Shown here: positions 32,490 through 61,523 of the stretch, piece after piece | How positions within the stretch are numbered: position 1 is the stretch's first letter | Layout of the letters: every line of letters starts with the position of its first letter | From: Minisyncoccota bacterium | Lineage (GTDB): Bacteria; Patescibacteriota; Minisyncoccia; Phycocordibacterales; UBA9973 | Assembly: GCA_041664465.1 (NCBI GenBank) | Contig: JBAYKP010000002.1 | Span: forward strand, 21,190 to 85,189 | Reading direction: 5' to 3' | Length of the DNA stretch: 64,000 bases | Made by a program: the position numbers and the translations under genes | Notes under the pieces: model-generated | Databases searched by the model: none | What the model saw: only the letters and a program-made list of their open reading frames with translations | What the model was told of the DNA's origin: nothing

Positions 32490-32526
32490 TCCTTTATAAT
32501 ACCAGTTTTTGAGGAATGAGGGAATA

Positions 32527-32952
32527 TTATTGAAAACTAATTTCAAATGGATACATTCCCATACCGCAGGAGCCGTTTAGGGTGCCGGCTGGTTGTGTAC
32601 TGAGGTCTATATCTGTACTTCCTGATTGTGGGAGACTTTTAAAGATATTCATAGAAGGAATTCTGACAGAAGAAGAGCAATCAAAAGTTCCATTTGTGTT
32701 AAATCTTAAAATTGTAGGAATTCCTGCCTTTGCAATACTTTTCCTTGGTTGGTAACCACCTTTAGCATTTATCTCTATAATTTGTTTACCATCTACTACC
32801 GAAACATTCTTTATAGAAGTTTCTTGTGTTGTTCCAGTACTATTATTACTAGAATCATTTGATTGATTACTTGTTTTTCCACTCGTAAGAACAATAGCAA
32901 ATATAATTAATGCCGCTGATACTACTATTGAGATGATTGTGTTTTTTGTCAT
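32527..32952 (-). CDS. Cupredoxin-like domain membrane-anchored protein
   Basis: C-terminal GSCGMGMYPFEI resembles the cupredoxin-like Y-x-C-x3-H/x-x2-M motif. Paralog of 44140-44499. Confidence 0.45.
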   Translation of the reverse strand: MTKNTIISIVVSAALIIFAIVLTSGKTSNQSNDSSNNSTGTTQETSIKNVSVVDGKQIIEINAKGGYQPRKSIAKAGIPTILRFNTNGTFDCSSSVRIPSMNIFKSLPQSGSTDIDLSTQPAGTLNGSCGMGMYPFEISFQ

Positions 32953-32953
32953 T

Positions 32954-34015
32954 TTAAAAATTAAATATTGGCTTTATTAATCCGATTACGACCAAACTAT
33001 TCAATACATTCATTATAGCAAAAAGTATGACGATAAGCCCAGCTGACTTGAAGAAGATGCCAGAGTTTTTATTATTCTTTATACTAAAAGAACTGAAGCT
33101 TATCAAAGCAAGTACAGGAAGAGTCCCTAAAGCAAAAGCAAACATTGTAAGAGCTCCATTCATGAAACTTCCAGTAGAAAGAGTGTATATCTGCATTGAT
33201 TGAGTAAATCCACATGGAAGAAAGAATGTAGCTATGCCAACTAAAATTGGAGTGAGAGAGTGGTTTAATTTGGAAATATTGAAAGCTCTTTTTGATATAA
33301 ACTTTGGCATGCTTAATTGCAGTTTTTTAGTAGAGTGGAATACATCAAGCAAGTTTATACCCATGATAAGCATAACTATGCCTATAAATATTCCTAAGCC
33401 AAACGCTGCTCCAGTATTTAAAGTGAATACACTTCCAAGAGCACCGATAACTCCACCTAATATAAAAAATGAGACGAGCCTACCGAGATGGAAAAGTATT
33501 TGAGGCTTCACCTTATCGCCTTCTTGGGCGAAAGTTGCCGACATTGAGAGGACAAGTCCTCCGACGACGGCCATACAAGTAGAGAGGGAAGCGATAATCC
33601 CGACCACAAAAGCAGTCCCATAAGTAATTTTTGATGTATTTATTAGATTTACCAGTCCAATCTTTTGCAAGATTATAAATAAAGCAATAAATAATAAAGC
33701 CACAGGTATCGCGATTTTAAAATCTGACCAATTTTTGTCTCTTTTTTGTTTTTCAAGTGAGAGAGTATATCCGTGAGGTTTTAAAACAGTTGTTAATTCT
33801 TCTGCTATCTGTTCTATTGTCTTATCTCCGAAATCCCCCTCTATTTCTACGGAAGTATTCTTGAGGCTTGATCTCACGTGTGTTATATAAGGTAATTCCT
33901 TTAATTCACTTTCAGTTAAGAGTACACAAGAATTGCAGTGCATACCATTTACATGAAATTTATATTTTGTTGTTTGATTTTGATTGTTCATATAGTTAGA
34001 TATACAATTTACCAT
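32954..34015 (-). CDS. HMA (heavy-metal-associated) domain fused to a CcdA/DsbD-like polytopic membrane domain
   Basis: N-terminal GMHCNSC motif. TM Cys motifs STC and LPCGFT resemble the CcdA SPC/TPC pattern. Confidence 0.55.
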   Translation of the reverse strand: MVNCISNYMNNQNQTTKYKFHVNGMHCNSCVLLTESELKELPYITHVRSSLKNTSVEIEGDFGDKTIEQIAEELTTVLKPHGYTLSLEKQKRDKNWSDFKIAIPVALLFIALFIILQKIGLVNLINTSKITYGTAFVVGIIASLSTCMAVVGGLVLSMSATFAQEGDKVKPQILFHLGRLVSFFILGGVIGALGSVFTLNTGAAFGLGIFIGIVMLIMGINLLDVFHSTKKLQLSMPKFISKRAFNISKLNHSLTPILVGIATFFLPCGFTQSMQIYTLSTGSFMNGALTMFAFALGTLPVLALISFSSFSIKNNKNSGIFFKSAGLIVILFAIMNVLNSLVVIGLIKPIFNF

Positions 34016-34061
34016 AAAAAAATACCTTTTACAATTAAGTATTTATCTACATAAAATATTA

Positions 34062-34086
34062 TATACCCCCTAGGGGTATATGTCAA
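34062..34086 (-). promoter_or_regulatory. CsoR-type operator palindrome (tatacccc-cta-ggggtata) lying between ttgaca (-35) and an AT-rich -10 on the minus strand
   Basis: Near-identical palindromes at 34782-34806 and 44792-44818. Resembles the published Bacillus CsoR operator (TACCC...GGGGTA). Confidence 0.6.
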
Positions 34087-34088: not shown

Positions 34089-34472
34089 TTATTTTACATT
34101 ATTAATAATGTTTTGAATAATTTGGTCAATTTCTTTTGGCCTCTCACCTAAATCTGCTTGTGGGAAGAATTGTGACAGAATAATTGGTCGCATACCAGAA
34201 ATAAAAGTTTGTCCGTCTTTGTTATAAACATTTATTTTGCACGGCAAGCAGAGTCCGATTTTAATGTCTTTTTCTAAAAATTCATTAGCAAACTTGGCAC
34301 TACAAAATTCAATAATTTTAAATGATTCTCGTTCAAATCCTTTTTCGCCTAAAGTTTTTTGTACGTCATGAATATACAAAACACGCATGAGAGCTTTGGC
34401 GATTTCATCCTCCACACTTTTGACTACGTCATCAAAAGTTTTAGTTGTAGTTACTGTATAATCAAATTCCAT
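34089..34472 (-). CDS. DUF302-family protein
   Basis: Conserved GLCLPCKINVY segment typical of DUF302. Confidence 0.55.
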   Translation of the reverse strand: MEFDYTVTTTKTFDDVVKSVEDEIAKALMRVLYIHDVQKTLGEKGFERESFKIIEFCSAKFANEFLEKDIKIGLCLPCKINVYNKDGQTFISGMRPIILSQFFPQADLGERPKEIDQIIQNIINNVK

Positions 34473-34497
34473 AAATTTTTATATATTAAACTAATAA

Positions 34498-34722
34498 TTA
34501 AGCACTTAAATCCTTTTTCTTTTCTTCAAATTCTTTTTTATCTATTTCACCTTTAGCGTATCTTTCTTCTAAGGTATGAAGAGATTTCTTGCTATCCATT
34601 ACATTTGTTTTATTGTTGCTGATAAGCCAAATAATAAAATAAATAATTGCTCCCCAAAACAAAATCATCATAATTCCACCTCCAAACCAACCACCCCATC
34701 CATTATATATTCCATACATCAT
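34498..34722 (-). CDS. SHOCT-domain small membrane protein
   Basis: Gly-rich TM N-terminus plus C-terminal [22 protein letters not shown] (SHOCT-like). Confidence 0.5.
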
Positions 34723-34781
34723 ATAATTTACTTTTGTTTATTTTTATAATAAATACAGTCCGACAAACTTATATAATATTA

Positions 34782-34806
34782 TATACCCCTAGGGGGTATG
34801 TGTCAA
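34782..34806 (-). promoter_or_regulatory. CsoR-type operator palindrome (tatacccc-ta-gggggtat) + ttgaca -35 upstream of the SHOCT/DUF302 pair
   Basis: As for 34062. Confidence 0.6.
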
Positions 34807-34869
34807 CGATATCAATAAACAAGAAAACTACTTCATATGAAGTAGTTTTCTTGTTTATGAATCTCTCTA

Positions 34870-35568
34870 TTATAATTTTTCTATTTTTTGTATAAGCATA
34901 TCATTTGCTATGGCCATATTGGGGTCATCAAATACATATCTGACTATTCCTTCTTTATCTATAACTATATAGGTATGCCCTGGAAGAGAACCTCTATGCA
35001 TTGAAGAAGCAGTAGTTAAGAGACCTAATTGTTTAGATGTGTTTGCATTGATATCAAACATCGTCATTGTTTTTGCGAGTTCTGGCATTTGGTCTATTGC
35101 TTTCTGCCAATCTTTGGCAGGGTCAACTACGACAGAAATAGCTTGAGTTTTATCGTTATTGAATCTCGCATCACTTCCAAAGGCTGACATTTGATTCCAG
35201 CAAGCTGGATAGCACATAAGTCCTTCATTGAAGAACAAGACTATATTTTTACCTTTTAAATCAGCAGGTGTATATATTTTTCCATCTTTATCAGATAATG
35301 AGATTGCAGGCATAGTTTTCCCCACAAGAGAATTTAATAATGTATTGTCCGTCGCTATCGATGCACCACCATGATCGTGTGGATTAGGAGTTGTGTTACT
35401 ATTGTTAACACTAGTTTGAGGATTAGTTTTTGGTCCTTGGGAAGGGTTTTTTATTAGGAAGTATCCTAAAAATAATATTACAATTGAAAGTATTACAATT
35501 GAAAATACAAGTGGTTTATTATTTTGATTATTCATGTTTTTTGTTTTTATTTTGATTAATGAACACAT
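34870..35568 (-). CDS. Membrane-anchored thioredoxin-fold thiol:disulfide oxidoreductase (TlpA/redoxin-like)
   Basis: Active-site-like CYPAC within IVLFFNEGLMCYPACWNQ. Confidence 0.55.
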   Translation of the reverse strand: MCSLIKIKTKNMNNQNNKPLVFSIVILSIVILFLGYFLIKNPSQGPKTNPQTSVNNSNTTPNPHDHGGASIATDNTLLNSLVGKTMPAISLSDKDGKIYTPADLKGKNIVLFFNEGLMCYPACWNQMSAFGSDARFNNDKTQAISVVVDPAKDWQKAIDQMPELAKTMTMFDINANTSKQLGLLTTASSMHRGSLPGHTYIVIDKEGIVRYVFDDPNMAIANDMLIQKIEKL

Positions 35569-36388
35569 ACGATATGAGTATTATTATTCCGACGAATAAT
35601 AATGCCCATATGTATTCAGGGATTACTTTTATAAATCCACTGATAGATTTTAAGAATTTAGCATTGTATAAATTCATATCTAATTGATAATCTGAGTGAA
35701 CAAACAATTTATCTTTAAAAGCTAAATATGTAATATAGCTTCCCATTAAGAAAAATATAAGTCCAGAGATTAATTCAGAAACAGAAATTTTCCAGCTGAA
35801 ACTACCAATTCTCATACCAATACTTCTCTTAGCATTAGTAAACTTTTCTGCTAGGTTTACTTTATCCAAGAAGGCTGCAATGATGAATAACGGCAAGGTC
35901 ATCCCTAGGACATATGCGAGTGTATATAAGACACCCCAGACTATTGTACCGCTTGTTAGTGATAGAGTTAGAACTCCTGCTAAAACTGGAGCACAACAAG
36001 TAGTTGCAATCGCTGAGAAAATACCGAGAACATAGATAGAAGAGACGTGCCTTCTCATTCCATCTCGAAGAGAAACTGGTCGAGCAAACTTTTTACCCAA
36101 AAGCATTATTATTCCTAATATTATTAAGAATATTCCACCTACAGTAAAGATTACATTATGATATTTACTGAAAAGTTGTGCTAAGGCAGAGAATCCTAAA
36201 CCGATTGGAACAAAGACAGTTGCTACTCCTAGGAAAAATATAAAAGTCATAAAAAAGATTTTATATTTTTCTCTAAAGATATTTCCCAAATAAGAGGGGA
36301 GTAGAACTGTAATGCAACAGGGAGCAAAGAGTGCTGCGACTCCAGCCACAAAGGCTGCTACTAACGATATTCCGACTAATGATTCCAT
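35528..36388 (-). CDS. CcdA/DsbD-like polytopic membrane protein with paired Cys motifs
   Basis: FAPCCITVLLP and ATTCCAPVLAGV in TM segments. Confidence 0.5.
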   Translation of the reverse strand: MESLVGISLVAAFVAGVAALFAPCCITVLLPSYLGNIFREKYKIFFMTFIFFLGVATVFVPIGLGFSALAQLFSKYHNVIFTVGGIFLIILGIIMLLGKKFARPVSLRDGMRRHVSSIYVLGIFSAIATTCCAPVLAGVLTLSLTSGTIVWGVLYTLAYVLGMTLPLFIIAAFLDKVNLAEKFTNAKRSIGMRIGSFSWKISVSELISGLIFFLMGSYITYLAFKDKLFVHSDYQLDMNLYNAKFLKSISGFIKVIPEYIWALLFVGIIILISYVFINQNKNKKHE

Positions 36389-37026
36389 ATATTTTTTTCT
36401 TTAAAATTAGGAATAAATGCAGGGACTTTTTCTTTGTATTTTATATATTCTTCACCAAATTCTTTTTCCATCTCCCTTTCTTCTTTATAAGAAAGACGTG
36501 TATACATAAAAACTAAAATAGGGAACATTGCTAATGTTAGTATTGTTGGCCATTGCAAAAGAAATCCAACCATTATCATTATAAAACCAACATACTGAGG
36601 ATGTCGGGTATATTTGTATATTCCATTTACAGCGAGAGTATGCTCTTTTTGTGCTTTATATAAAACTTGCCAAGCCTTGGCTATAATTATAAAACCAATA
36701 ATAATAAATACACTACTTAAAGTATGTATTATATTAAAATGCGGATCTCCTTTTAATCCCAATAGAGTTTCCCATAAATGTCCATTATTATGGCTAAGCC
36801 AATCTACATTAGGAAAATATTTTATTAATGTTCCAGAGAAAAAATAAATAGTTAGAGGGAATCCGTACATTTCTGTGAAAAGAGCTACTATGAAAGCAGA
36901 AAACGCTCCAAATGATCGCCAGTCTCTTTTTGTTTTAGGATGAGTAAAACTAAAAGCAAAGACAATAAATATTGTTGTTTCTAATAATACTAATCCCCAT
37001 AATCCATAACCTGATGTTGTTGTCAT
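36376..37026 (-). CDS. Isoprenylcysteine carboxyl methyltransferase-family (ICMT/PEMT-like) membrane methyltransferase
   Basis: RHPQYVG motif. 216 aa, polytopic. Confidence 0.6.
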   Translation of the reverse strand: MTTTSGYGLWGLVLLETTIFIVFAFSFTHPKTKRDWRSFGAFSAFIVALFTEMYGFPLTIYFFSGTLIKYFPNVDWLSHNNGHLWETLLGLKGDPHFNIIHTLSSVFIIIGFIIIAKAWQVLYKAQKEHTLAVNGIYKYTRHPQYVGFIMIMVGFLLQWPTILTLAMFPILVFMYTRLSYKEEREMEKEFGEEYIKYKEKVPAFIPNFKEKNIWNH

Positions 37027-37041
37027 AATGTTTTTATATTA

Positions 37042-37518
37042 TTAATTAAGTTGCCAAATAAAACTCCTTACGGTCTCTTTAATTCCAGAAATTTTTAATT
37101 CAATAGATTTAGGATTAGGATTTATCGCCTCAAACACTAAAACCCCTTCTCTATGGTGTCCACCGGCTTCTGCCCCTTCCCAACGTAATGGTGTATAAAC
37201 TTTTCCTTGATTATCTACTAAAACAGTATTTTTTATTAAATCTTGATCAAGCTCGATTTCGTGATTATTCATTACTATCTCAAATCTCCATTCTTTTGAT
37301 TGTGAAGAGACATCTACTGGGGTGATAGTGACAGTCACAGCCAATTGTTCGTCGGTTTTAGATTCCAATGTTATCTTTGGGGAATTATTTGTATTTACGA
37401 AGGAGTCATTTTTTAAGACTGGATGATTTATTTTTTTATTATCAAAAACAACAAACATCAAGATTCCTGTAATTATAAATAATATTATTAGAATTATAGT
37501 TAGTTTTTTAGATTTCAT
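37042..37518 (-). CDS. Membrane-anchored hypothetical protein
   Basis: N-terminal TM segment. No recognised domain. Confidence 0.4.
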   Translation of the reverse strand: MKSKKLTIILIILFIITGILMFVVFDNKKINHPVLKNDSFVNTNNSPKITLESKTDEQLAVTVTITPVDVSSQSKEWRFEIVMNNHEIELDQDLIKNTVLVDNQGKVYTPLRWEGAEAGGHHREGVLVFEAINPNPKSIELKISGIKETVRSFIWQLN

Positions 37519-37964
37519 ATGTTTGTTTTTTTAATTTTAATTATTTTATTACTTATAAATATAATACCGAATATATTAAATAGAATTCCTACCCAAAAGA
37601 TTTCAGTTTGATATTTTGTGATGAACATAAGGGAACCCGAGATGCCGAGAATCGGTATTATATTGGTCAAGTAATGAGCACAACACGAAACCATTGCTAA
37701 AGTAGAAGTCGTACCTGTCACAGCCACAGCCTTGCCATCTATAGTAATATGTTTATTCTTAACAAGTTCTTTTAGATAAGAATATAATCCTATCTGAATT
37801 CCAAAACCTACCGTTAAGCTGACAATAAAATACCAATAACTTGCAAACTGCTTTTCTGCAAAAACCCAACCTGACACAAACGTTAATACTGCAAAATAAA
37901 CTCCAAGCAAAATTATGCTTGCAAGTGTTCCATATAGAATTGATTTTTTAATACTACGAGCCAT
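37515..37964 (-). CDS. Polytopic membrane hypothetical protein (contains CC pair)
   Basis: Hydrophobicity. VSCCAHY segment. Confidence 0.4.
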   Translation of the reverse strand: MARSIKKSILYGTLASIILLGVYFAVLTFVSGWVFAEKQFASYWYFIVSLTVGFGIQIGLYSYLKELVKNKHITIDGKAVAVTGTTSTLAMVSCCAHYLTNIIPILGISGSLMFITKYQTEIFWVGILFNIFGIIFISNKIIKIKKTNI

Positions 37965-37998
37965 ACTTATTTAATGACAACTATTACTTGAATTATTT

Positions 37999-38256
37999 TT
38001 AACTTTTTTCTTTATCTCCCTCTCTTCCTTTTAATACCTCAGTTTCTTCACTGGAATTTTTATGAGATTTTCTCATCATAAATAGATGAAATATAACCAT
38101 TACTCCTATCCCAATAAAAATAATCCATTTTGAATTTCCAGAATTACCAGCACTACTTCCTACTCCAAAAATTAAAAGAAGAACAATAGGTAGGGCACAG
38201 CAAATCATCATCATCCACATCATTCCTTTTCCATTTTTATCGTCGTGATTATGCAT
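37999..38256 (-). CDS. Small Met/His/Cys-rich membrane protein (possible metal-binding)
   Basis: MHNHDD ... MMWMMMICC composition. Confidence 0.4.
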   Translation of the reverse strand: MHNHDDKNGKGMMWMMMICCALPIVLLLIFGVGSSAGNSGNSKWIIFIGIGVMVIFHLFMMRKSHKNSSEETEVLKGREGDKEKS

Positions 38257-38294
38257 ATTATTTTTTTTATTTAATTTTTAATTTTCAACCTCTT

Positions 38295-38462
38295 TTAATG
38301 ACAACAACTTCCAGAATGTTCTGGTTTCGATGCTTCCTGTTTTTTATATTCTTCTTTGCAATTTTCTGAACAAAACTTTTTACTAGATTCTTCAGGATAG
38401 ACTTTTTCTTTTTGTAATTCCATTTTACAAACGGGGCATTTTTCTTTAAATAGATTGAACAT
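38295..38462 (-). CDS. Small TRASH/YHS-like zinc-ribbon metal-binding protein ending in SCCH
   Basis: CPVC-x18-CSENC spacing close to the TRASH pattern C-x2-C-x19-22-C-x3-C. The ORF-track N-terminal extension to 38582 overlaps the neighbouring gene and is rejected. Confidence 0.4.
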   Translation of the reverse strand: MFNLFKEKCPVCKMELQKEKVYPEESSKKFCSENCKEEYKKQEASKPEHSGSCCH

Positions 38463-38515
38463 AAAATTTAATAAATTATTTTTTAATATCGACCAATCAT
38501 TAATTATATAAGACT

Positions 38516-39547
38516 TTATACCCCGCACCCTTGTTGTTTTTGTTGTTGCGGAGCTTGAGCAGGTGCTCCTCCGACATCGCATCCACCTCCTTTTTGTTGC
38601 GTACTTTCAGGCTGTGTAACTTGTGTTTTTATATTTGCAAATCCTTGGCTACTTGAATAATCTGCCCCAAGTATTTCTTGTGCATTTATATTTTTCCATT
38701 CTACCCCCTTACTCTTCATGTAAGTTGCTATTGTTACATATGTATCAGGGAACCAGTATGAATTGACAGTTAAGGCTGTGCTCCACATCTCTTGTTCACT
38801 TGCACCTTGTGAAGCCATTAATTCTAATAGTCCAAGCATTGCCATTCCGTGGTTGCAATCAGGAAAATGAACTGAGTTTCCACAGCAAGGTCTATATATA
38901 CCACGAGATACTTTGTCTACAAGAGCTTGTTGCTCTGGTGTTAAGTTAAAGAATACGTGTTTACTGTAGTGATCCATTGCTCCACCTTTGGCAATAGTCC
39001 AACCTCCAGTTGAAGCAAAGTTTCCTGCTCCACCATATTTAGGATCCATCATTTCTCCTTTCTCTAATATTTCATTCTTATTAGCCAAGCCAAGTGCCCA
39101 GAATAGATTGAGTAAATATCCCGAATTTTCATTGGTTATTTTTATTTTACCGTTACCTATTCCTTCAAGTAATCTTTTATCTTCATCTGTTAATTGACCT
39201 CTATCTTTATAGAGAGCTTTGAATTTGTCTGCATCGATTGCTCCAGATTCAGTCAACTTTACTCCAAGGTCTCCCCATTTAACATTTAGTGTTACTCCTT
39301 TAGCAGGAATTACTTTTTGTTCTAGGGCGGATACTTGGACTTCTTCTTTGGTTGATGAAGGGGTGCCTTTATTTGTTGCATAGACTAAAGATCCCCCGAT
39401 AATAATGGCCGCTAATAATATACTCCCAGGTAGTATATAATTTTTTTCTTTTTTATCAGAAATTATTTCTTCTTTTGGAAGTTCTTCTAATATTATTATT
39501 TCTTCTTCTTTCAATTCTTCAACTTCATTATTTTCTTCGTTTTTCAT
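38516..39547 (-). CDS. Membrane-anchored hypothetical protein with a Cys/His cluster (RPCCGNSVHFPDCNHGMAM)
   Basis: TM anchor after an acidic N-terminus. No family recognised. Confidence 0.4.
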   Translation of the reverse strand: MKNEENNEVEELKEEEIIILEELPKEEIISDKKEKNYILPGSILLAAIIIGGSLVYATNKGTPSSTKEEVQVSALEQKVIPAKGVTLNVKWGDLGVKLTESGAIDADKFKALYKDRGQLTDEDKRLLEGIGNGKIKITNENSGYLLNLFWALGLANKNEILEKGEMMDPKYGGAGNFASTGGWTIAKGGAMDHYSKHVFFNLTPEQQALVDKVSRGIYRPCCGNSVHFPDCNHGMAMLGLLELMASQGASEQEMWSTALTVNSYWFPDTYVTIATYMKSKGVEWKNINAQEILGADYSSSQGFANIKTQVTQPESTQQKGGGCDVGGAPAQAPQQQKQQGCGV

Positions 39548-39549
39548 AA

Positions 39550-40044
39550 TTATTCATTACAGCAATTAGCGAGTTTACTAATGATATCTTCTAGGTTTGA
39601 ACTCGTTTTTGCGGTATCTTTTATTAATTGACCATCTATTAATTTTAACTTTAGAGCCCAAAAGATTGAATATACTTTATAAGCTCTTTCAAACATCTTC
39701 TTTGCTTCATCTTTTTTATTTTCAGATTGAAACTTATTTCCGACCTCTATAAGCCTCATTGTGGAGGAAAGTAAATGTTTTGATATGCACCATGTTTCCC
39801 CTTCGTGATTTGGCATTAATTCTTTCAGTAATTCTTTTCTTAAGCTTCTTATTTCTTCTGCTGTGTCAAAATATTCATCTTTTTTAATTTTTACCCCTGT
39901 GAAGAAGAAGTGTTCTTCTAGACTGATTAAATTCATAACTGCTAAACTTAAATCCTCCGTGGTAGAAAGATCTACCCCTGCTTTATCTTTAAGCGATTCT
40001 ATTTTCTCAAGGAATTCATTTAGTGTTGGTATTGTTTTTTCCAT
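39550..40044 (-). CDS. Hypothetical cytoplasmic protein
   Basis: ORF with protein-like composition in an operon context. Confidence 0.35.
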   Translation of the reverse strand: MEKTIPTLNEFLEKIESLKDKAGVDLSTTEDLSLAVMNLISLEEHFFFTGVKIKKDEYFDTAEEIRSLRKELLKELMPNHEGETWCISKHLLSSTMRLIEVGNKFQSENKKDEAKKMFERAYKVYSIFWALKLKLIDGQLIKDTAKTSSNLEDIISKLANCCNE

Positions 40045-40048
40045 AAAT

Positions 40049-40828
40049 TTATATAAAGAAGATTAAGATACCGATAATAATCATTGCGAGACCAGCCCAG
40101 AATTTAAACCCTTTCATATTTGTCTTTTTCCATTCCGAAACCTTATCCACCATAGTTCTATTAGCTGTTACAAAGAGAACGGCAACTAAAGGCACAATAA
40201 GAATTAGATTGTAAAGCATTAAATAGCTTGAACCCATTAAGTATGTTACTTGATCTTTTAGAAGCCCTATGACCATCAAGTACGGGCCACCCATACAAGG
40301 GAACTGGCATATACCTACTAAGAGCCCAAGACCGAATGCTGCAGGAAATGAAGCCTTTTCCATTAGGCGACCCATAGCCGTATGAGAGATAGACGGAATT
40401 TTAAACTTGATAGGAAACTTCGGAAACAACTGACTTAAAATATTTATTAATCCAAATATAATAAGTAGTGATGCTCCAAGTTTACCCATGAAGTGGGGAG
40501 TGTTGAAGAGGTGTAGGACTTTTAGAATCCCTAAGCCAATCAGTAAATAAGCGACAAAGATTCCGGCGATATATGTGCCACCTATTTGAAGAATTTTCTT
40601 TCTAGTTAATTGCATCCCAAATAGGAAAGCGATTGTAATTAGAAGAATTGAGAACGAGCAAGGGTGCACACTATCAAGCAATGCCGCGACTAATACAAGT
40701 GGTAGAAGCCAAGTACCACTATTGCTTAAATTCCATATGAATGCAGCCGTACCCGTGCTCTGTTTCAAGAACACTATTCCTAAAATAGCGATGATTAAAA
40801 CAATTGATATTATTATTATTTTTTTCAT
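40049..40828 (-). CDS. CcdA/DsbD-family thiol:disulfide transporter
   Basis: SVHPCSF and QFPCMGGPY motifs (CcdA-like xPC ... xPCxGP). Confidence 0.6.
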   Translation of the reverse strand: MKKIIIISIVLIIAILGIVFLKQSTGTAAFIWNLSNSGTWLLPLVLVAALLDSVHPCSFSILLITIAFLFGMQLTRKKILQIGGTYIAGIFVAYLLIGLGILKVLHLFNTPHFMGKLGASLLIIFGLINILSQLFPKFPIKFKIPSISHTAMGRLMEKASFPAAFGLGLLVGICQFPCMGGPYLMVIGLLKDQVTYLMGSSYLMLYNLILIVPLVAVLFVTANRTMVDKVSEWKKTNMKGFKFWAGLAMIIIGILIFFI

Positions 40829-40834
40829 AAGTAT

Positions 40835-41359
40835 TTAAGGTGTTACTGTTGCTTTAATTTCAATACTAATATCTTTACCATTTTCATCAACCAGTGTGAT
40901 AAACCTATCTATAAATCCTACACCAGCGGGGCCATGAGCATTAGGATCATAAACAACTTCTAGATTGCTAGTACCCCTTGCTTTTATAGTTTCATTGGCA
41001 GGAGGGAGATATCCATGACCTGACATTCCAAATGGTCCTTTTTTAGTACCATCAGGGCTAATAATGAATGCATTAGTACACATACAAGAAGTAGAGACAG
41101 AAGAAAGAAGAATATCTTTATCTGTAGGGTTTGTAATGGTGAAATTTTTAGTTACATTTCCATCTTTCATAGAAATCGTACCAAAATTATAAACACTTTC
41201 TGATGTCGTTAGAGCACTTTGTTCCCCTGTACTTTGTACTGGAGCTTTTTGATTTTTACTACCCCACCATATAAGGCCTATGATGGCTAAAATAATAAGG
41301 AGGGTAATTGTAATAGTTTTTTTCATTTTATTTAAGTTTAATTTAATTAATAAAAACAC
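40835..41359 (-). CDS. DUF1573-like secreted or membrane-anchored protein
   Basis: STSCMCT resembles the DUF1573 SCGCT signature. N-terminal TM anchor. Confidence 0.4.
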   Translation of the reverse strand: MFLLIKLNLNKMKKTITITLLIILAIIGLIWWGSKNQKAPVQSTGEQSALTTSESVYNFGTISMKDGNVTKNFTITNPTDKDILLSSVSTSCMCTNAFIISPDGTKKGPFGMSGHGYLPPANETIKARGTSNLEVVYDPNAHGPAGVGFIDRFITLVDENGKDISIEIKATVTP

Positions 41360-41425: not shown

Positions 41426-41869
41426 CTATATATTTGCTAGTTTGTATTTTTTTGTATTAAGAATTCCACTAGAGAAAATTTCTCCTAGATAATTGAAAAG
41501 ATTTATTTGTGGATGTTCTTTTATATAAAGTTTAAATTTAAGATAAATTTGCCGAGAATATAGAGATAAATAATTTCTTGCAAAAACAAATATTACAAAT
41601 AGTAATACAAATGATACAAGGGAGCTTGTTGTGTTAAGAATATTTTGGGGCATTAAAGTGAACATTTCGTTCCAAACAGTGACATGCTCAGAGAAGTTCA
41701 TAGCACACCCATTATTTTCACTACCCAAAAGACAACTATTTTTAGCTCCTTCAAATTTCATTCCATTCATATGATAAACAAGCCCCAAAGTACTAATCCA
41801 CAATAAAGAAACTATGCTTATTATAAGCATTATTTTCCCGAATTTTTTATTGTTTAATGTGGAATTCAT
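41426..41869 (-). CDS. Hypothetical membrane protein
   Basis: Hydrophobic segments only. Confidence 0.35.
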   Translation of the reverse strand: MNSTLNNKKFGKIMLIISIVSLLWISTLGLVYHMNGMKFEGAKNSCLLGSENNGCAMNFSEHVTVWNEMFTLMPQNILNTTSSLVSFVLLFVIFVFARNYLSLYSRQIYLKFKLYIKEHPQINLFNYLGEIFSSGILNTKKYKLANI

Positions 41870-41900: not shown

Positions 41901-44135
41901 TTAAACTATATTTTTTTTCTTAAGCCAAAGTGAATTTCCGACGACGGAAATAGAACTCGTTGCCATCGCTACTGATGCGAAAATAGGATTGAGGAGGATG
42001 TGGAAAAGAGGGTAGAGAGCTCCCATAGCTACGGGGATTAATATAACATTATATCCGAATGCCCAGAAAAGATTTTGGCGGATAGTTCGCATAGTTTTCT
42101 TGGATAAGACAATCGCTGCCGCAACGGACCTCAAATCTTTATTGATAAGAGTAATATCAGCGGCTTCTATCGCTACATCAGTTCCACTCCCCATTGCAAT
42201 CCCTACGTCAGCAGCAGCGAGAGCAGGGGCGTCATTGATACCATCTCCTACCATTGCTACAACTTTACCTTCTGCTTGTATTTTTCGTACCTCTTTTTCT
42301 TTTTGATCAGGGAGAACTTCTGCAAGGATTCTAGCAATGCCTAACTTTTGACCTATTGCATTGGCAGTTCTTTGATTATCTCCTGTGATCATTACAGTCT
42401 CAATGCCAAGCTTTTGCAATGCTATTAATCCTTCACGAGCACTTTCTTTTATGATATCAGCAACAGCAATGAATCCAATAAGTTTATTTTCTCGCCCTAT
42501 CATCATCACAGTCTTACCATTGTTTTCCATTTCGGTTATTCCACTAAGAGCACTACTTATATCAATGCCTTCTTTGTCCATCAATCTCTTATTACCGAAA
42601 ACAATTCTTTTACCATCTATAAAGCCTTCAACTCCGTGTCCAGGAATTGCTTGGAATTTTTCTACTTTTATTAGTATGAGTTTTTCTTCTTCTGCTTTTT
42701 TTACAATTGCTTCTGCAAGAGAATGCTCGGAACCTTTCTCTATAGAACCCGCAAGTTTTAATAGCTCGTCACTAGATATTGTTTTATCTATTGAAACAAT
42801 GTCTGTAACTTCTGGTTCTCCTTTTGTGAGAGTTCCTGTCTTATCAAAAATAATTGTATTGATTTTATGAGCTATTTCTAGACTCTCAGCATCTTTTATA
42901 AGGATACCGTGCTCTGCACCTTTACCTGTACCTACCATAATTGCCGTCGGAGTAGCGAGGCCCATAGCGCAAGGACAAGCAATTATAAGAACAGCAACAG
43001 TGTTTAATATTGCAAATAATAAAGTAGGTGCAGGCCCAAATATATACCAGATTGCGAAAGTAAGTATAGCAAGCATTATTACAACTGGTACGAAATATGA
43101 AGATACTAAATCAGCCAAGCGCTGGATAGGTGCTTTACTTCCTTGGGCTTCTTGAACCAGTTTTATGATCTGAGCGAGCATTGTCTCGCCTCCTATTTTT
43201 GTAGCTTTGAAAGTGAAAGTGCCGGTTTTGTTCATTGTTGCGCCTACGACTACGTCGCCTTTTGTCTTATCTGTGGGGATACTTTCCCCCGTAATCATAG
43301 ATTCATCGATAGAAGATTCTCCTTCTATAATAATTCCATCTACAGGAATTTTCTCGCCTGGTCTTACTCGTATAATATCTCCAATGATTACTTCACTTAT
43401 AGGTAAGTCTATCTCTTTCCCGTCGCGCATTACACGAGCAGTCTTGGCTTGAAGTCCGATAAGCTTTTTAATAGCTTCCGAAGTTCCAGCTTTAGCCTTT
43501 GCTTCAAAATAGCGCCCTAATAATATAAGACCAATGATAATTACTGTCGTATCAAAATAAGGCATTGGCTCAATGCCTATCTTTTGTACAAGATGAGGGA
43601 ACAAAATTACAAAAACAGAATACGCATATGCGACAGTTGTACCTATGACTACGAGTGTATCCATGTTTGCAGTCCTGTGCTTGATAGCTGAGAGAGCAGC
43701 ACGGTAGAAAGTAAAGCCAGCCCAGAATTGTACGGGAGTAGCGAGGATGAATTGAACCCAGAAATTTCTCAAAATCATAGGTGAAGTTTCCATAAGTCCT
43801 GGGAAAGCTCCCCATAAAATCAAAGCTCCTAGACCAAGACTTATTATAACTTTAGTGCGTAAACTACGAAGATCTTTTAATTTTTCTTTTTGTTCCTCAT
43901 CTTCTGTTTTTACTTCTTCGTCTAAAAGGGCAATGTATCCGACGTTAGAAATAGCACTAGATAGCTTTTCATCTGTTACTTTACTTGGATCGTATGTTAC
44001 TGTCGCTTTCTCTGTCGCTAAGTTTACTATGGCACTAGAAATACCATCTACTTTTTTAAGTGAGCCTTCTATTATTGCCACGCATGAAGCGCAATGTATT
44101 CCTTTTATTGCAAATGTTTTTTTATTTTGTTCCAT
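41901..44135 (-). CDS. copA: Copper-translocating P1B-type ATPase
   Basis: N-terminal HMA GIHCASC, TM CPC motif ([10 protein letters not shown]), DKTGTLT phosphorylation site and [10 protein letters not shown]. Confidence 0.92.
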
Positions 44136-44139: not shown

Positions 44140-44499
44140 TTATTTTACTATTATTTTCCCGTGATACATGCCCATACCACAAGTGTATGTAAATTCACCA
44201 CTCTTAACAGGGGATAGGTCTATCTCGACTTTCTGATTAAGTGGTAGTTGTTTGCGAATTTTAAAATCTCCTAGAACTATTTCTTCTAGACATGCAGTTG
44301 GATCCTTGCGAATAAAAGTAAGCTTGGTTGTTTTGCCTTTTGGTATTGATATAACTTCTGGGGTATATCCACCATCCACAATGATATCTACAGAGCCTGA
44401 GACTTCTACTTCCTTATCTTTCTTACCAAGAAAAAACCAATAGGTGAAACCTATTCCCAAAATACTTATTACTATAACCATTATTTGATCTATATTCAT
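44140..44499 (-). CDS. Cupredoxin-like domain protein
   Basis: [16 protein letters not shown] matches the cupredoxin-like Y-x-C-x3-H-x2-M-x-G-K-I-V signature. Sits immediately upstream of copA. Confidence 0.55.
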
Positions 44500-44517: not shown

Positions 44518-44781
44518 TTATTTTCTCTTAAGCCCATAAACTTTTAATATTTCCTCCGTGGCCTTTTTGGTTTGCCCTTTTTGTATTTGGTGTACTAGAC
44601 AGGTACCTAGGTGACCTTCCATTAGGGCATCTTCCACTCCTGAGAGAGCTTGCTTCACGGCGGAGGTCTGGGTGATGATATCAATGCAGTAAATTCCTTT
44701 CTCGACCATCTCTTGTAAGCCTCGTACTTGCCCTTCAATAATTTTCAAACGCTTTATTAGTTTTTGATTATTTGTATTCAT
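44518..44781 (-). CDS. csoR: CsoR/RcnR-family metal-sensing transcriptional repressor
   Basis: RLKIIEGQVRGLQEMVE...C.D ... H...C pattern. 87 aa from the ATG at 44781. The 179-aa ORF-track version has a non-conserved extension overlapping smpB. Confidence 0.8.
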   Translation of the reverse strand: MNTNNQKLIKRLKIIEGQVRGLQEMVEKGIYCIDIITQTSAVKQALSGVEDALMEGHLGTCLVHQIQKGQTKKATEEILKVYGLKRK

Positions 44782-44791
44782 ATAAAACATC

Positions 44792-44818
44792 TTATACCCT
44801 AGGGGGGTATAAGTCAAG
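44792..44818 (-). promoter_or_regulatory. CsoR-type operator palindrome (ttataccc-ta-ggggggtataa) + ttgac on the gene strand, 11 nt upstream of the csoR ATG
   Basis: Same palindrome as at 34062 and 34782. Sits in the -35/-10 spacer position. Confidence 0.65.
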
Positions 44819-44880
44819 AGGGAGGGTAGGAAGATGGTGAGTAAAGGAAATTCAAATATTTTGTGGTAATATATGAGTAT

Positions 44881-45327
44881 ATGGCAACATATATAGACAA
44901 CAGAAAAGCACACTTTAACTATGCAGTGGAGGAAACTTTCGAAGCCGGGATAGAACTCCAAGGTTTTGAAGTGAAATCTATCAAGAATGGACATGGAACT
45001 ATCAATTCTAGTTTCGTCATAGTGCGAGGTGGTGAAGCATACATCGTAGGTATGCATATTCCTCCGTACCAGCCTAACAATACAGACCCTGGCTATGATC
45101 CAGACAGGACGAGACGCCTTCTTTTGTCTAAAAAGGAGATAAAGAAGCTAGCAGATAAAGACAGTACCAAAGGATTGACTCTCATCCCCCTCTCGTTGTA
45201 TAGTAAGGGTCGCTACATAAAAGTATCTATTGCGGTAGCTCGTGGAAAGAGAGTTTTCGACAAAAGAGAAACTATCAAGAAACGAGAAACGGATAGAGAA
45301 ATAAGTAGAGAGTATAAAGTTCGTTGA
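44881..45327 (+). CDS. smpB: SsrA-binding protein
   Basis: HFNYAVEETFEAGIELQGFEVKS ... typical SmpB. Confidence 0.9.
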   Translation: MATYIDNRKAHFNYAVEETFEAGIELQGFEVKSIKNGHGTINSSFVIVRGGEAYIVGMHIPPYQPNNTDPGYDPDRTRRLLLSKKEIKKLADKDSTKGLTLIPLSLYSKGRYIKVSIAVARGKRVFDKRETIKKRETDREISREYKVR

Positions 45328-45331: not shown

Positions 45332-45729
45332 GGGGATGATCGGCTTCGACAAGAGGACTCATCTTATATATGCATGTAAAGTACTCAGGAATCTTTTAAA
45401 ACTTCTTGGAAAAGACTAAGTGCAAACAAAGTCGCCAAAGCGGTAGTTTCACCTTACACTTTTGTGTTTGGTAACTCACCTGCTTTCGCCCTCGCCTAAT
45501 TTAGGTCTGGACGATGTCTGCTCTCTCTACATCCGATACAGAGGTTGGGCATAATTTATCGGGTTACGATTTTACAACAGCTTGATGTAAAGTCCGACAA
45601 TTTAAAGCTCGTTATTTATCTTTCTTGTGTGCTCTCTAGGATAAATGGTTAAAACAAAATGAACATACTAAACATGTAGATTTCTATAAGATCTCCCTTT
45701 GCACGCGGGTTCGATTCCCGCCATCTCCA
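45332..45729 (+). ncRNA. ssrA: tmRNA (SsrA)
   Basis: 5' ggggatgatcggcttcgacaagagg and a 3' tRNA-like domain gcgggttcgattcccgccatctcc pairing with the 5' end. The internal tag ORF ends ...GNSPAFALA-taa. Lies directly after smpB. Confidence 0.8.
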
Positions 45730-45742
45730 CACTCAAATAAAA

Positions 45743-47785: not shown

Positions 47786-47858
47786 CCGCACTTAGCTCAG
47801 TTGGTAGAGCAATCCGCTTATACCGGATCGGTCCTAGGTTCAAGTCCTAGAGTGCGGA
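47786..47858 (+). tRNA. tRNA, anticodon TAT by manual fold (tRNA-Ile UAU)
   Basis: Manual cloverleaf: acceptor ccgcact/agtgcgg, D arm agctcagttggtagagc, anticodon stem atccg/cggat with loop cttatac, T arm ctagg-ttcaagt-cctag, discriminator A. No encoded CCA. Confidence 0.65.
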
Positions 47859-47863: not shown

Positions 47864-50167
47864 TTATTCAAAATGCAATTTTAGGTTTTTGTCGGTGAGA
47901 GTTTTCGAGAGGAGAGGGGAGGATTTGAGATATACATCAGAAGTGATCATTTTGATGGCTTCGGTACGGGCGGCTTCCACCATTTTTATATTCTTTATAG
48001 CTTCCATTCCGAGGTCGGTGATGCCCCATTGTTTATCGCCAGAGAGAAGTCCTGCTCCGCGGAGTGTTAGATCAAGCTCTGCCAATTCAAATCCATTAGC
48101 TGCTTTGGTTAAGGCTTTTAATCTGTCTATTGTTTTGTCACTCTTAGCATCGGCAAACAAATAACAATATGACTGGTATGTGGAGCGGATAACTCGTCCA
48201 CGAAGCTGATGAAGCTGTGCGAGGCCAAATCTCTCTGCTCCTTCTATTATGATGACTGTGGCATTAGGGACGTTTACCCCTACTTCTATTACAGAAGTAG
48301 AAACGAGAATATCTATTTTCTTTTCAGCGAAATCTTTCATCACTTTCTCTTTCTTCTCTTTGCTCATTTTACTGTGCATGATATCTATATTGTAATTTGG
48401 GAAGATATCTTTTTTCAGTCTTTTTGCTTCTGAGGTAACGGCTCGTAGGTCGGACAGAGTATTCCCGTCAGCACGCGATAAAATTCTGCTGAATTTTTCG
48501 CTAGTACTCGGCCCGTCGGCCTCCGTAATGCTTCCTGGAACACTCTGTCCGACCTCCTCGCCTTTCCCTAAAACACTTTCTCCGAGCTCCTCTCCGATTT
48601 TCGGACAAATTACATAAAGCTGTCTACCAGCTTCTAATTCCTTTTTAATTTTCTCATAAGAACTTTCTCTTTTATTCTCTGGCACAATTTCTGTAATGAC
48701 TTGTTTACGTCCCGCGGGCATCTCATCAATGATGCTTAAGTCCAAGTCTCCGTATATAGTGAGAGCGAGAGTACGGGGAATGGGAGTAGCAGTCATAGAG
48801 AGGTAGTGCGGTGCGTGGCCGTGCTTCTTCACTAGTTTCATTCTTTGATTCGTGCCAAAGCGGTGCTGTTCATCTATTATGACTAATCCTAAATCTTTGA
48901 ATTCTACAGATTTTGATATGAGTGCATGAGTGCCTATCACTATCGGTATCTCACCATTTTTAATCCATTTCAAAAGTTGATTTTTAGATATAGTGGTCCA
49001 AGTTTTCACTTGTGTACCTTTCTCCCACGGAGCCGATTTACTTGGGAATTTACGGCATCCAGAGCCTGTCATAAGAGCGATAGAGATACCAGTGTGTTCA
49101 AAATACTGGATAAAATTCTCATAAAGTTGCGTTGCAAGTACTTCCGTCGGAGCCATATAAGCTACCTGTAAATTTCCATATTCTCCATACTGAGAAGTTC
49201 CGGTTGTGTTCTTGATTACAGCATAAGCGACAGTTGCTGCCACGAAAGTTTTCCCACTTCCTACGTCTCCTTCAATAAGACGAGACATTGGCTTATCTTT
49301 TATAAAGTCTTCTAGTATCGTATCTATCGCACTTGTTTGGGCCTTGGTCGGAGTAAAAGGGAAACGTCCAACGAAGTCAGTAATATCTTTGTGTGGAATT
49401 TTAAGTTTGTATGAAAAGTTTTCTTGATATTTCTTTTTTTCTTGTTGGCGAGAAAGTTGAATGAAAAACACTTCCTCAAAGGCAAATCTTTTGCGTGCTA
49501 TTTCGGCATGCTCTTTCTTAGCTGGCATGTGGACCCAGATCAAAGCTGTGTGTAAAGCGGGTAATTTGTAAGTATTTAATATTTCACTTGGGATATAATC
49601 TACTATATCTTTCACACAACCTTGCTTCAATATCTTCTGTATAGCATGATAGAACCATTTAGAAGTGATGCCACGACTTTCTCGATAAACAGGGAAGCCG
49701 AATTGCGTTTCCACTCCTTTATTACTCCAAAGTGAATCGTGAATATCTATCGGCAGGATATCTTCTTTATTTATTTCTGGATTTGTGAGAGTAGGGCCGT
49801 AAGTTTTACTATTTGTAACTTTTCCTGTCACTCGCACAGTTGAGCCTTCTTTAAGCATCTTTGCAAGGTATGGCTGATGGAACCAGATGATATTGATAGA
49901 GCCAGTCAAATCAGAAAGTACAGCCTGCCCCATTGGGATTTTACTTTTGAATCCCTTTTTAGTTTTAAGTCCTGTGAGTTTCCCTAAGATGGTGATGTTC
50001 TCACCTTCTGTTAGAGTATTGATATTTCTAACTTCACTTATATCACTATAACGAGAGGGGAAATGATAAAGTAGGTCTCTCAAAGTTTTGAGTCCAAGCA
50101 CTGATAACGCCTTTTTCTGATTTACATCAAGGCGAAAATGATTTTCAATTTTATCGGTTAGATTCAT
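47864..50167 (-). CDS. recG: ATP-dependent DNA helicase RecG carrying an in-frame repeat-element insertion
   Basis: GDVGSGKT, DEQHRFG, and wedge and helicase motifs. The inserted peptide VPGSITEADGPSTSEKFSRILSRADGN is encoded at 48447-48555. Confidence 0.9.
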   Translation of the reverse strand: MNLTDKIENHFRLDVNQKKALSVLGLKTLRDLLYHFPSRYSDISEVRNINTLTEGENITILGKLTGLKTKKGFKSKIPMGQAVLSDLTGSINIIWFHQPYLAKMLKEGSTVRVTGKVTNSKTYGPTLTNPEINKEDILPIDIHDSLWSNKGVETQFGFPVYRESRGITSKWFYHAIQKILKQGCVKDIVDYIPSEILNTYKLPALHTALIWVHMPAKKEHAEIARKRFAFEEVFFIQLSRQQEKKKYQENFSYKLKIPHKDITDFVGRFPFTPTKAQTSAIDTILEDFIKDKPMSRLIEGDVGSGKTFVAATVAYAVIKNTTGTSQYGEYGNLQVAYMAPTEVLATQLYENFIQYFEHTGISIALMTGSGCRKFPSKSAPWEKGTQVKTWTTISKNQLLKWIKNGEIPIVIGTHALISKSVEFKDLGLVIIDEQHRFGTNQRMKLVKKHGHAPHYLSMTATPIPRTLALTIYGDLDLSIIDEMPAGRKQVITEIVPENKRESSYEKIKKELEAGRQLYVICPKIGEELGESVLGKGEEVGQSVPGSITEADGPSTSEKFSRILSRADGNTLSDLRAVTSEAKRLKKDIFPNYNIDIMHSKMSKEKKEKVMKDFAEKKIDILVSTSVIEVGVNVPNATVIIIEGAERFGLAQLHQLRGRVIRSTYQSYCYLFADAKSDKTIDRLKALTKAANGFELAELDLTLRGAGLLSGDKQWGITDLGMEAIKNIKMVEAARTEAIKMITSDVYLKSSPLLSKTLTDKNLKLHFE
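48447..48555 (+). repeat. Palindromic repeat element copy D, in-frame inside recG, flanked by a perfect 14-bp inverted repeat (aggtcggacagagt / actctgtccgacct)
   Basis: The core at 48461-48542 matches copy C and the cores of copies A and B. Confidence 0.85.
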
Positions 50168-50774: not shown

Positions 50775-50864
50775 GGATGAGTGGCCGAGAGGCTTAAGGC
50801 AGCGGTTTACTAAACCGCCGTTCTGTAAAAAGAACCGTGAGTTCGAATCTCACCTCATCCGCCA
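50775..50864 (+). tRNA. Class II (long-variable-arm) tRNA with encoded CCA and an atypical anticodon loop (ttactaa; canonical reading gives anticodon ACT)
   Basis: Acceptor ggatgag/ctcatcc, discriminator G, CCA encoded, T arm gtgag-ttcgaat-ctcac, anticodon stem gcggt/accgc. Identity unresolved. Confidence 0.5.
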
Positions 50865-60983: not shown

Positions 60984-61523
60984 ATGAAAAAAGATAAGTT
61001 AACAATAGGGCAAATTATTAAAAGAGATATCTGGCGACATTTATATCGTGTTTTTCCTTGGGTCCAAAAGCATTTCTTAAAGTGGCACCTAGTCTGGCAT
61101 GAGAAAGGACGTCAGCCTTATCATATCGGGTGGCTTGCCCCAGGGAAGACATTAGAAGAACTTGAAAAGCACTTGCATACTGAATGGGGCTTCGGGAACC
61201 ATTTCGTGGCATGGCATGATAGAGGTCAAGTTCTTTCTTGGCGTAAGCTTGAAGATTTTGATAATCAGTATCATATAAGAGTTTTCAAAGATGGGGAGAT
61301 ACGAGGGCATCATGAATTCACTCCTGAAAGTAAACCATTTGATCATTTCGTAGAAATAAATGAAGAATCTCGCATGGATCAATTTAAAAAGTTTCTCGGA
61401 GATTATATCGTCCAAAGGAAATATATTTCACATTTGAAAGTAGACAAGAAAACTGCTCCAGATTCAGAAATAACTATAGACAATAGACTTGATAAAAATG
61501 GAAGAATCAAACATAAAATTTAA
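60984..61523 (+). CDS. Hypothetical protein (His/Trp-rich), no recognised domain
   Basis: Intact 179-aa ORF. Confidence 0.4.
   Translation: MKKDKLTIGQIIKRDIWRHLYRVFPWVQKHFLKWHLVWHEKGRQPYHIGWLAPGKTLEELEKHLHTEWGFGNHFVAWHDRGQVLSWRKLEDFDNQYHIRVFKDGEIRGHHEFTPESKPFDHFVEINEESRMDQFKKFLGDYIVQRKYISHLKVDKKTAPDSEITIDNRLDKNGRIKHKI

Follow-up and report, generated by a model that had tools for sequence, protein, structure and literature searches.

The DNA considered here is a 64,000-nt stretch of a Minisyncoccota bacterium (contig JBAYKP010000002.1, positions 21,190 to 85,189), referred to below as the window, whose minus strand carries csoR, encoding a CsoR-family repressor, followed by genes for a homolog of the Cu(I) chaperone CupA and for a predicted Cu(I)-exporting ATPase, CopA. 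Directly in front of csoR lies a palindrome that, with a probability we would put at about 0.85, is the operator bound by the product of that same csoR, set within a core promoter that would drive a csoR-cupA-copA(-tm147) operon. This reading draws on the anatomy of the sequence, the statistical excess of the palindrome, family assignments, conserved metal ligands, and a geometry of box, promoter and start codon that recurs across Patescibacteria; the relatives referred to throughout are 80 Patescibacterial csoR loci (L001-L080), comprising 803 kb and taken from a scan of species-representative genomes.

A Candidate Operator in the csoR Promoter

The features immediately around the palindrome are the following.

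44791-44813: candidate CsoR operator, site 1, a perfect 9+9 inverted repeat that matches the type-2 operator class
44812-44817, minus strand: -35 hexamer TTGACT of the csoR promoter (promoter scan), with a TTGAC(A/T)-type hexamer at the equivalent place in most of 70 relatives
44789-44794, minus strand: -10 hexamer TAAGAT (promoter scan), with TATACT or TATAAT in the same register in relatives
44779-44782, minus strand: predicted transcription start (T44782 or A44781) and csoR start codon (44781-44779), from geometry
44518-44781, minus strand: csoR, 87 aa (PF02583; Cu(I) ligands C32, H57 and C61; second shell Y31 and E77)

Read directly, the minus strand from 44820 to 44779 is cTCTTGACTTATACCCCCCTAGGGTATAAGATGTTTTATATG, in agreement with an earlier note on this DNA that had proposed a CsoR operator embedded in the promoter of a csoR-cupredoxin-copA operon. 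A repeat search finds here a perfect 9+9 bp inverted repeat (CTTATACCC/GGGTATAAG, arms 44791-44799 and 44805-44813, 5-nt gap) whose core, TACCCCCCTAGGGTA at 44795-44809, has the form TAC-N9-GTA, and the order along the minus strand is ...CCTACCCTCCCTC-TTGACT-TA-TACCCCCCTAGGGTA-TAAGAT-GTTTTAT-ATG. In a promoter scan the flanking hexamers, TTGACT (44817-44812) and TAAGAT (44794-44789), form a pair with a 17-bp spacer that scores 9/12; the core fills this entire spacer and abuts the -10 hexamer, and only 7 nt separate TAAGAT from the csoR ATG. The palindrome is thus where the note had it, fused to a -35-like hexamer and inside the promoter, but the distance to the start codon had been miscounted: from the end of the palindrome to the A of the ATG (44781) there are 9 nt (44790-44782) and not 11, a figure reached only by counting from ...GGGTATA.

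Type-2 CsoR operators are G-tract pseudopalindromes built on an essential TAC-X9-GTA dyad with TA-rich flanks, some 19-21 bp in length (PMC3902906); their consensus is ATATACCCCTNAGGGGTATAT, each site is bound by two tetramers (PMC3902906, Tan et al.), and the validated sites of Streptomyces lividans, which include TATACCCCCTAGGGGTA, share the core (PMC3902906). The window contains three sites of this kind, site 1 before csoR and sites 2 and 3 some 10 kb away, and all three read TA-TAC-(C/G tract, 9 nt)-GTA-TA, so that the TACCC/GGGGTA type assigned to the palindrome beforehand fits this operator class. Site 1 also has the expected location, within the csoR-cupA-copA promoter, and this location is kept in 70 of the 80 relatives.

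Chance is a poor explanation for three such sites. The pattern TATACCC-N5-GGGTATA with at most two mismatches has three matches in the 64-kb window where 0.15 would be expected, and a total of three was reached in none of 100 shuffles, while TACCC-N5-GGGTA with at most one mismatch returns those three sites again and one mismatched match at 316; a search of the window at relaxed stringency gave no further credible box. Since the G+C content of the window is 35%, the C6/G3 core of site 1 is far from background.

An additional TACCC half-site lies at 44824-44828 on the minus strand, 19 nt upstream of the operator TACCC and just 5' of the -35 hexamer (CCTACCCTCCCTC), and C-rich stretches likewise precede the -35 hexamer in L006 and L007. 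This third half-site may have arisen by chance or may serve as an auxiliary contact comparable to the "external GTA dyad" in S. lividans copZA1.

Promoter Geometry and the Start of csoR

Across the relatives, TACCC-N3-7-GGGTA occurs 83 times, compared with 1.35 in shuffles. The box stands directly 5' of csoR in 70 of the 80 loci, and five more have it 290-460 nt upstream of csoR, before an intervening SHOCT gene. The -35/-10 pairs that flank the proximal box match consensus at 10 or more of 12 positions in 60 of the 70 loci, the spacer measures 16-18 nt in all 70 (17 nt in 40), and the start codon follows the -10 hexamer after 6-9 nt in 61, after exactly 6 nt in 40. The operator thus lies between the -35 and -10 hexamers, an architecture like that of NreA.

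This geometry bears on how csoR is translated. Direct reading finds no Shine-Dalgarno (SD) sequence before the csoR ATG, and with a predicted transcription start at T44782 or A44781 the csoR mRNA would be leaderless or would have a leader of 1 nt. The 6-9 nt from -10 hexamer to start codon in 61 of the 70 loci point the same way, since such tight spacing is what a leaderless transcript requires, and csoR is probably translated from a leaderless mRNA. The conserved csoR start gives 87 aa in 70 of the 80 relatives and is used by two independent gene calls. A candidate start upstream (ATG 44790-44788, beginning MFYMNTNN) was rejected, as it falls inside the -10 hexamer.

The same signature appears elsewhere in the window, where 12 of the 62 likely genes have a TATAAT-like hexamer (at least 5/6) exactly 6 nt 5' of the start codon, compared with about one per offset as background, for example at the gene starts 15240(+), 16614(+), 53941(+), 56583(+), 57175(+), 58659(+), 10624(-) and 50565(-); an SD-like tetramer is found in only 8 of 60 window genes. 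In the relatives' loci TATAAT-N6-ATG is enriched approximately threefold. From these patterns most operons of the genome seem to start with leaderless mRNAs, and in the collection of literature searched no description of leaderless mRNA in Patescibacteria or Paceibacteria came up.

The alternative that survives best would move the promoter away from the palindrome: the true promoter would lie further upstream (e.g., TTGCCA-18-CAAAAT, 44887-44858), the palindrome would fall in a 5' untranslated region of about 70 nt, and CsoR would act as a roadblock that stops elongation on a leadered csoR transcript. The upstream pair does score an equal 9/12 in the promoter scan, and the TAAGAT at the box is weak. 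However, the region upstream is not conserved in relatives, whereas TTGACA and TATAMT flank the box at a fixed register in 60 of 70, and the upstream candidate lies within the start region of the divergent smpB. A roadblock would also leave the 6-9 nt gap between -10 hexamer and ATG unexplained, and it sits poorly with a csoR ATG that has no SD sequence and with the general TATAAT-N6-ATG signature of the genome. We therefore consider it very unlikely, and prefer the operator within the core promoter.

The neighbor on the other side, smpB (44863-45327, plus strand), is divergent from csoR, the two start codons being 99 bp apart. Control of smpB by the box is unlikely because its ATG at 44881 and its putative -10 hexamer (44867-44872) are more than 50 bp off.

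The Repressor

The csoR product matches Pfam PF02583 (Trns_repr_metal) over residues 5-81 with 89.4 bits against a cut-off of 22.8 (E 2e-25), and the closest solved structures are all copper CsoRs: 4m1p of Geobacillus thermodenitrificans, 4adz of S. lividans and 2hh7 of Mycobacterium tuberculosis. The Cu(I) ligands of these three structures have their aligned counterparts in C32, H57 and C61, which reproduce the x-C-H-C fingerprint (Cys36/His61/Cys65 in M. tuberculosis numbering), and a YC...H...C pattern is present in every one of the 80 relatives. Outside the first shell, a Tyr and a Glu couple Cu(I) binding to DNA release, and both are in place here, with Y31 just before C32 and E77 aligned with position 81 of 2hh7 (M. 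tuberculosis Y35 and E81). The Gln that S. lividans requires for operator binding (Q81) is found as well, Q38 in IDIITQ aligning with the Gln of IDILTQ in 4adz. The CsoR repressor of 87 aa named in the earlier note is therefore well founded, and because csoR is the first gene behind the operator, the operon would be autoregulated by position, as had also been proposed.

Homologs of this protein number in the thousands, the closest of which (80-95% identity) are named Candidatus Nomurabacteria or Paceibacterota, and the exact protein also occurs on an ENA metagenome contig of 102 kb (ERZ27249449, k141_630824). It falls below the cut-offs of the NCBIfam RicR, RcnR and FrmR models (for RicR, 68.6 bits vs. 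175). Its N-terminus is free of His and Cys. Several relatives' CsoRs begin MH.., with His at position 2, and this start could add a fourth ligand to give an InrS-like H-C-H-C set.

The Operon and Two Further Box Promoters

Behind csoR, and in two further units, the following features are found.

44140-44499, minus strand: cupA-like gene for a membrane-anchored Cu(I) chaperone, 119 aa (Pfam Cupredoxin_1, E 4.8e-22; CupA match)
41901-44135, minus strand: copA, 744 aa, predicted P1B-1 ATPase for Cu(I) export with a single HMA domain at its N-terminus (TIGR01511, Pfam, motifs)
41426-41869, minus strand: 147-aa membrane protein, family unassigned, 31 nt after copA; the same slot is filled in L007 and L025
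41357-41376, minus strand: terminator-like hairpin with T-run (terminator scan), the likely end of the csoR-cupA-copA unit
34778-34806, minus strand: candidate CsoR-box promoter, site 3 (direct read)
34089-34722, minus strand: the two genes behind site 3, for a membrane protein with a SHOCT domain (34498-34722) and for a DUF302 protein (34089-34472) (Pfam)
34058-34086, minus strand: candidate CsoR-box promoter, site 2 (direct read); the order DUF302, box, HMA_DsbD2 also occurs in L127, L130 and L133
32527-34015, minus strand: the two genes behind site 2, for an HMA-DsbD_2 membrane protein (32954-34015) and for a second CupA-like protein (32527-32952) (Pfam)

The second gene of the operon had been described beforehand as cupredoxin-like, a description that its Cupredoxin_1 domain upholds but that can be made more specific, as the 44140-44499 product is homologous to CupA, the Cu(I) chaperone of pneumococcus (4f2e/2mry; E 5e-22). 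The Cu ligands of CupA are C74, C111, M113 and M115 (PMC5646241), and both Cys and the C-G-M-x-M stretch align (..DPTACLEE.. / ..TCGMGM.. vs. ..DPSPCLDQ.. / ..ACGMNM..); as read from the translation, the predicted protein has the two Cys, the C-x-M-x-M ligands and a hydrophobic N-terminal anchor expected of such a chaperone.

CopA, likewise anticipated as a P1B-ATPase, matches the copper-ATPase model TIGR01511 with 641 bits against a cut-off of 397 and the Pfam E1-E2 ATPase and HMA families. The translation contains CPC, N-x6-YN-x4-P and M-x2-SS-x5-N, the motifs of P1B-1 pumps in the Arguello classification. Among the relatives copA lies 3' of csoR in 72 of 80, and the order of the window, csoR-cupA-copA, recurs in six loci (L020, L021, L025, L028, L040 and L045). 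The 147-aa membrane protein has no Pfam or NCBIfam match; it is probably encoded by the last gene of the operon, although a TTAACA-16-TATAGT promoter of its own may precede it.

Sites 2 and 3 share the design of site 1, with all three boxes lying in 17-nt spacers between sigma-70-type hexamers on the gene strand (minus), and both match the promoter consensus at 12/12. Site 2 is TTGACA (34086-34081)-TATACCCCTAGGGGGTA-TATAAT (34063-34058), with its core at 34064-34078, and site 3 is TTGACA (34806-34801)-CATACCCCCTAGGGGTA-TATAAT (34783-34778), with its core at 34784-34798. No second CsoR-family gene was found in the window, so no paralog there could own these two sites, and one repressor appears to control three transcription units, all of them in a minus-strand cluster of 12 kb that is made up of metal and thiol genes.

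What the additional units encode can be linked to csoR through the relatives. The HMA-DsbD_2/CupA-like pair, in which the second CupA-like protein (32527-32952) matches CupA at E 6e-7, lies 10 kb from csoR in the window and has its own copy of the box promoter, and a pair of this kind is found downstream of csoR in 53 of the 80 relatives, mostly directly after copA. Genes of the SHOCT/DUF302 type occur inside box-controlled csoR operons in L016, L027, L034-L036, L099, L106, L117, L123, L126, L147, L149 and L154.

In eight metagenomic loci (L082, L114, L131, L138, L139, L151, L153 and L157) SHOCT-DUF302 follows a divergent CsoR paralog (33-38% identity to the window CsoR) with no TACCC...GGGTA box nearby, which hints at another regulator of this family that would recognize a different operator and perhaps respond to a different signal. 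Between the CsoR-controlled units of the window, at 34870-41359 on the minus strand, are 11 co-oriented genes without a CsoR box, with a strong hairpin at the end of the run (34817-34856). They encode a DUF1573 protein, two DsbD/CcdA-like membrane proteins, a redoxin/AhpC-TSA protein, an ICMT-like methyltransferase, several small membrane proteins and a Cys-rich protein of 343 aa (..CCGNSVHFPDCNHG.., C-terminal GGGCDVGG..QGCGV), and parts of this block accompany csoR-copA in L007, L025, L051, L065 and L072.

Other Explanations and Points Against

Next in plausibility after the roadblock is a CsoR-family protein that senses something other than copper, either persulfide, as a CstR-like protein would, or nickel or cobalt, as an RcnR- or InrS-like protein would. 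The family is functionally diverse, the protein scores below the RicR, RcnR and FrmR cut-offs, the MH.. starts of some relatives make an InrS-like H-C-H-C set conceivable, and thiol-related DsbD_2 proteins belong to the regulon. Yet the window protein itself has x-C-H-C with a Tyr/Glu second shell and neither His nor Cys at its N-terminus, the transporter passes a copper-specific ATPase model and has P1B-1 motifs, a homolog of the CupA Cu(I) chaperone is encoded in the same operon, and the operator is that of copper CsoRs of type 2. A non-copper signal is on balance highly improbable.

The palindrome might also act as RNA, as an intrinsic terminator or attenuator, rather than as a protein site. 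A terminator scan does flag it, as a 9-bp stem followed by ATGTTTTATA, and the predicted fold of site 1 has -11.9 kcal/mol with a z score of -2.9. However, no minus-strand gene ends upstream, where the neighbor is the divergent smpB, and the palindrome lies upstream of the predicted transcription start under a conserved promoter geometry. The arms, moreover, do not covary but are invariant (TACCC/GGGTA) in 77 of the 80 relatives, shuffled sequences fold as well as sites 2 and 3 do (z -1.7 and -0.8), and Rfam gives no match; the chance of a functional hairpin is close to negligible. Promoters of the MerR family are typified by a dyad between their -35 and -10 hexamers, but an activator of the CueR kind would need an over-long spacer of 19-20 bp where the spacer here is 17 bp (in all 70 relatives it is 16-18 bp), MerR-family genes are absent from the operon and from the positions next to it, and the sequence fits the CsoR and not the CueR class, which leaves this idea, too, with next to no probability.

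Several observations nevertheless weigh against a CsoR operator inside a functional core promoter. The -10 hexamer at site 1 is weak (TAAGAT, 4/6), and part of the apparent -10 conservation could be conservation of the operator because TATA flanks belong to the operator consensus of other phyla. Site 1 is also the most asymmetric variant of the box (C6-TA-G3, where relatives have C4-TA-G5 or C5-TA-G4). As for the regulon, 68 metagenomic DUF302 loci were searched and none had a box directly 5' of SHOCT-DUF302 in the manner of site 3, so that site 3 is supported by synteny and not by conservation of the site.

A further point concerns the protein. The RLXR DNA-binding motif is incomplete, reading R11-L-K-I14, with the first Arg kept and the second replaced, and in S. 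lividans the R57A mutant of the equivalent Arg gave no binding isotherm (PMC3902906). The replacement is a property of the whole clade, as all 80 relatives have RLK(I/V) or RLRI (RLKI-EGQ) and the operator is still the canonical TAC-N9-GTA. The second Arg of RLXR is not universal, because the M. tuberculosis CsoR has Thr at that position (RLKT in the 2hh7 alignment). In our judgment the missing Arg lowers the expected identity with the Streptomyces/Bacillus binding mode and not the claim of a CsoR operator.

Proposed Mechanism and Implications

From DNA binding and its stoichiometry to the effect of Cu(I), the point where transcription starts and the leaderless translation of csoR, we infer the following course of events. 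Without copper, CsoR tetramers would occupy the TAC-N9-GTA pseudopalindrome, two per site by analogy with S. lividans, and apo-CsoR on the box would keep RNA polymerase off the promoter, an exclusion expected because the palindrome takes up the entire 17-bp TTGACT/TAAGAT spacer. A rise in cytoplasmic Cu(I) would bring the metal to C32/H57/C61 and CsoR off the DNA. Transcription would then start at the A of the csoR ATG or 1 nt before it, csoR would be translated leaderless, and the derepressed operon would supply the chaperone of the CupA type, the CopA pump for Cu(I) export and, as negative feedback, CsoR itself. The promoters at 34.06 and 34.79 kb, identical in design, would place the HMA-DsbD_2/CupA-like and SHOCT/DUF302 pairs under the same repressor. 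Judged by sequence, then, the three CsoR-box promoters make up a small predicted copper regulon in a Nomurabacteria/Paceibacteria-like genome.

It is possible, though doubtful, that Patescibacteria have a clade-specific CsoR system, one that uses a canonical operator without the second Arg, is always leaderless in genomes that largely lack SD sequences, and controls the HMA-DsbD_2 and CupA-like pair. If so, operator recognition without the second Arg would imply a somewhat different protein-DNA interface, and the pair, present in 53 of the 80 loci, would be a new copper-handling module, possibly for thiol or electron transfer to a membrane-anchored cupredoxin.

For general copper biology nothing here is unexpected, the switch being of a known and well-understood type, found in a little-studied lineage and in an uncultivated ultra-small bacterium. 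Its value would lie in providing a concrete pair of transcription factor and operator for Patescibacteria, a lineage with almost no characterized regulation; among the top matches of a literature search, no paper mentions CsoR together with these phyla. Through the regulon assignment, copper stress would be tied to the SHOCT/DUF302 genes and to the widespread, uncharacterized HMA-DsbD_2/CupA-like pair. The three compact and fully specified promoters, two of which match the consensus perfectly, could perhaps serve as copper-inducible parts or as probes for the rules of promoters and leaderless translation.

Other Features of the Window

On the plus strand, 4 nt 3' of smpB, is a tmRNA gene (45332-45732; RF00023, 131 bits), and tRNA genes lie at 47786-47858 and 50775-50861. 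A repeated palindromic element is present as two intergenic copies of 125 nt (21022-21146 and 61521-61644) that share 95% identity, whose ends are inverted repeats of about 24 nt and whose fold is a long hairpin (-34.6 kcal/mol, z -3.6). Its 83-nt core occurs twice more (31958-32040 and 48460-48542, 90% identical), in frame in two unrelated open reading frames (ORFs), one phosphomutase-like (31026-32546) and one RecG-like (47864-50167), where it reads ..PSTSEKFSRILSRADGN... The element has no Rfam match and may be akin to miniature inverted-repeat transposable elements (MITE-like) or to repetitive extragenic palindromes (REP-like). The window also contains three paralogous plus-strand ORFs of about 580 aa (16614-18362, 18401-20170 and 29308-31029) with a Cys-rich N-terminus (MKSETKNCQNCKKDFTIEPDDFSFYEKIKVPPPTFCSECR...), in which 80-90 nt of DNA at the 5' end are 85-90% identical.

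Comparison with Known Systems

The closest counterparts are the type-2 systems, represented by S. lividans csoR, copZA1 and copZA2, by Bacillus subtilis copZA, and by Listeria monocytogenes and Staphylococcus aureus (PMC3902906), with which the window shares the G-tract TAC-X9-GTA operator and its TA-rich flanks. At sites 2 and 3 the core, TACCCC(C)TAGGGG(G)TA, is in essence that of the copZA sites validated in S. lividans. Also shared are the C-H-C triad for Cu(I), the conserved Gln and a Cu(I) P1B ATPase as target, and csoR would be autoregulated by its position, as the csoR genes of S. lividans and Listeria are. Unlike these systems, the present one has a Patescibacterial host (Nomurabacteria/Paceibacteria-like), the clade's Ile or Val for the second Arg of RLXR, an asymmetric C6/G3 site 1 and a CupA-type chaperone in place of CopZ, and its predicted regulon adds HMA-DsbD_2, CupA-like, SHOCT and DUF302 proteins.

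In promoter architecture the best parallel is Mesorhizobium NreA/nreAXY, which also belongs to the CsoR/RcnR family and likewise has a dyad operator in the -35/-10 spacer with the regulator as first gene. The NreA transcript starts at the A of the regulator's AUG and is leaderless by 5'-RACE (PMC12724321), whereas the leaderless start of csoR is predicted from geometry; NreA differs further in family clade, in its metal (Ni) and in the sequence of its operator.

In gene content the operon resembles copY-cupA-copA of Streptococcus pneumoniae (PMC5646241; PDB 4F2E, 4F2F), with the same order of repressor, CupA and CopA and a CupA homolog (E 5e-22) that has an N-terminal anchor and the four Cu ligands (Cys, Cys, Met, Met) aligned. 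Here, however, CsoR replaces CopY, and the operator class differs for that reason; the N-terminal domain of CopA is a classical HMA/CxxC domain and not a CupA-like cupredoxin. M. tuberculosis CsoR/RicR, finally, shares with the window protein its family, the Cu(I) triad and second shell, an autoregulated first gene and the lack of the second Arg (RLKT in M. tuberculosis), but in its operator the dyad is inverted (GTA/TAC) and spans a much longer stretch (PMC3902906).

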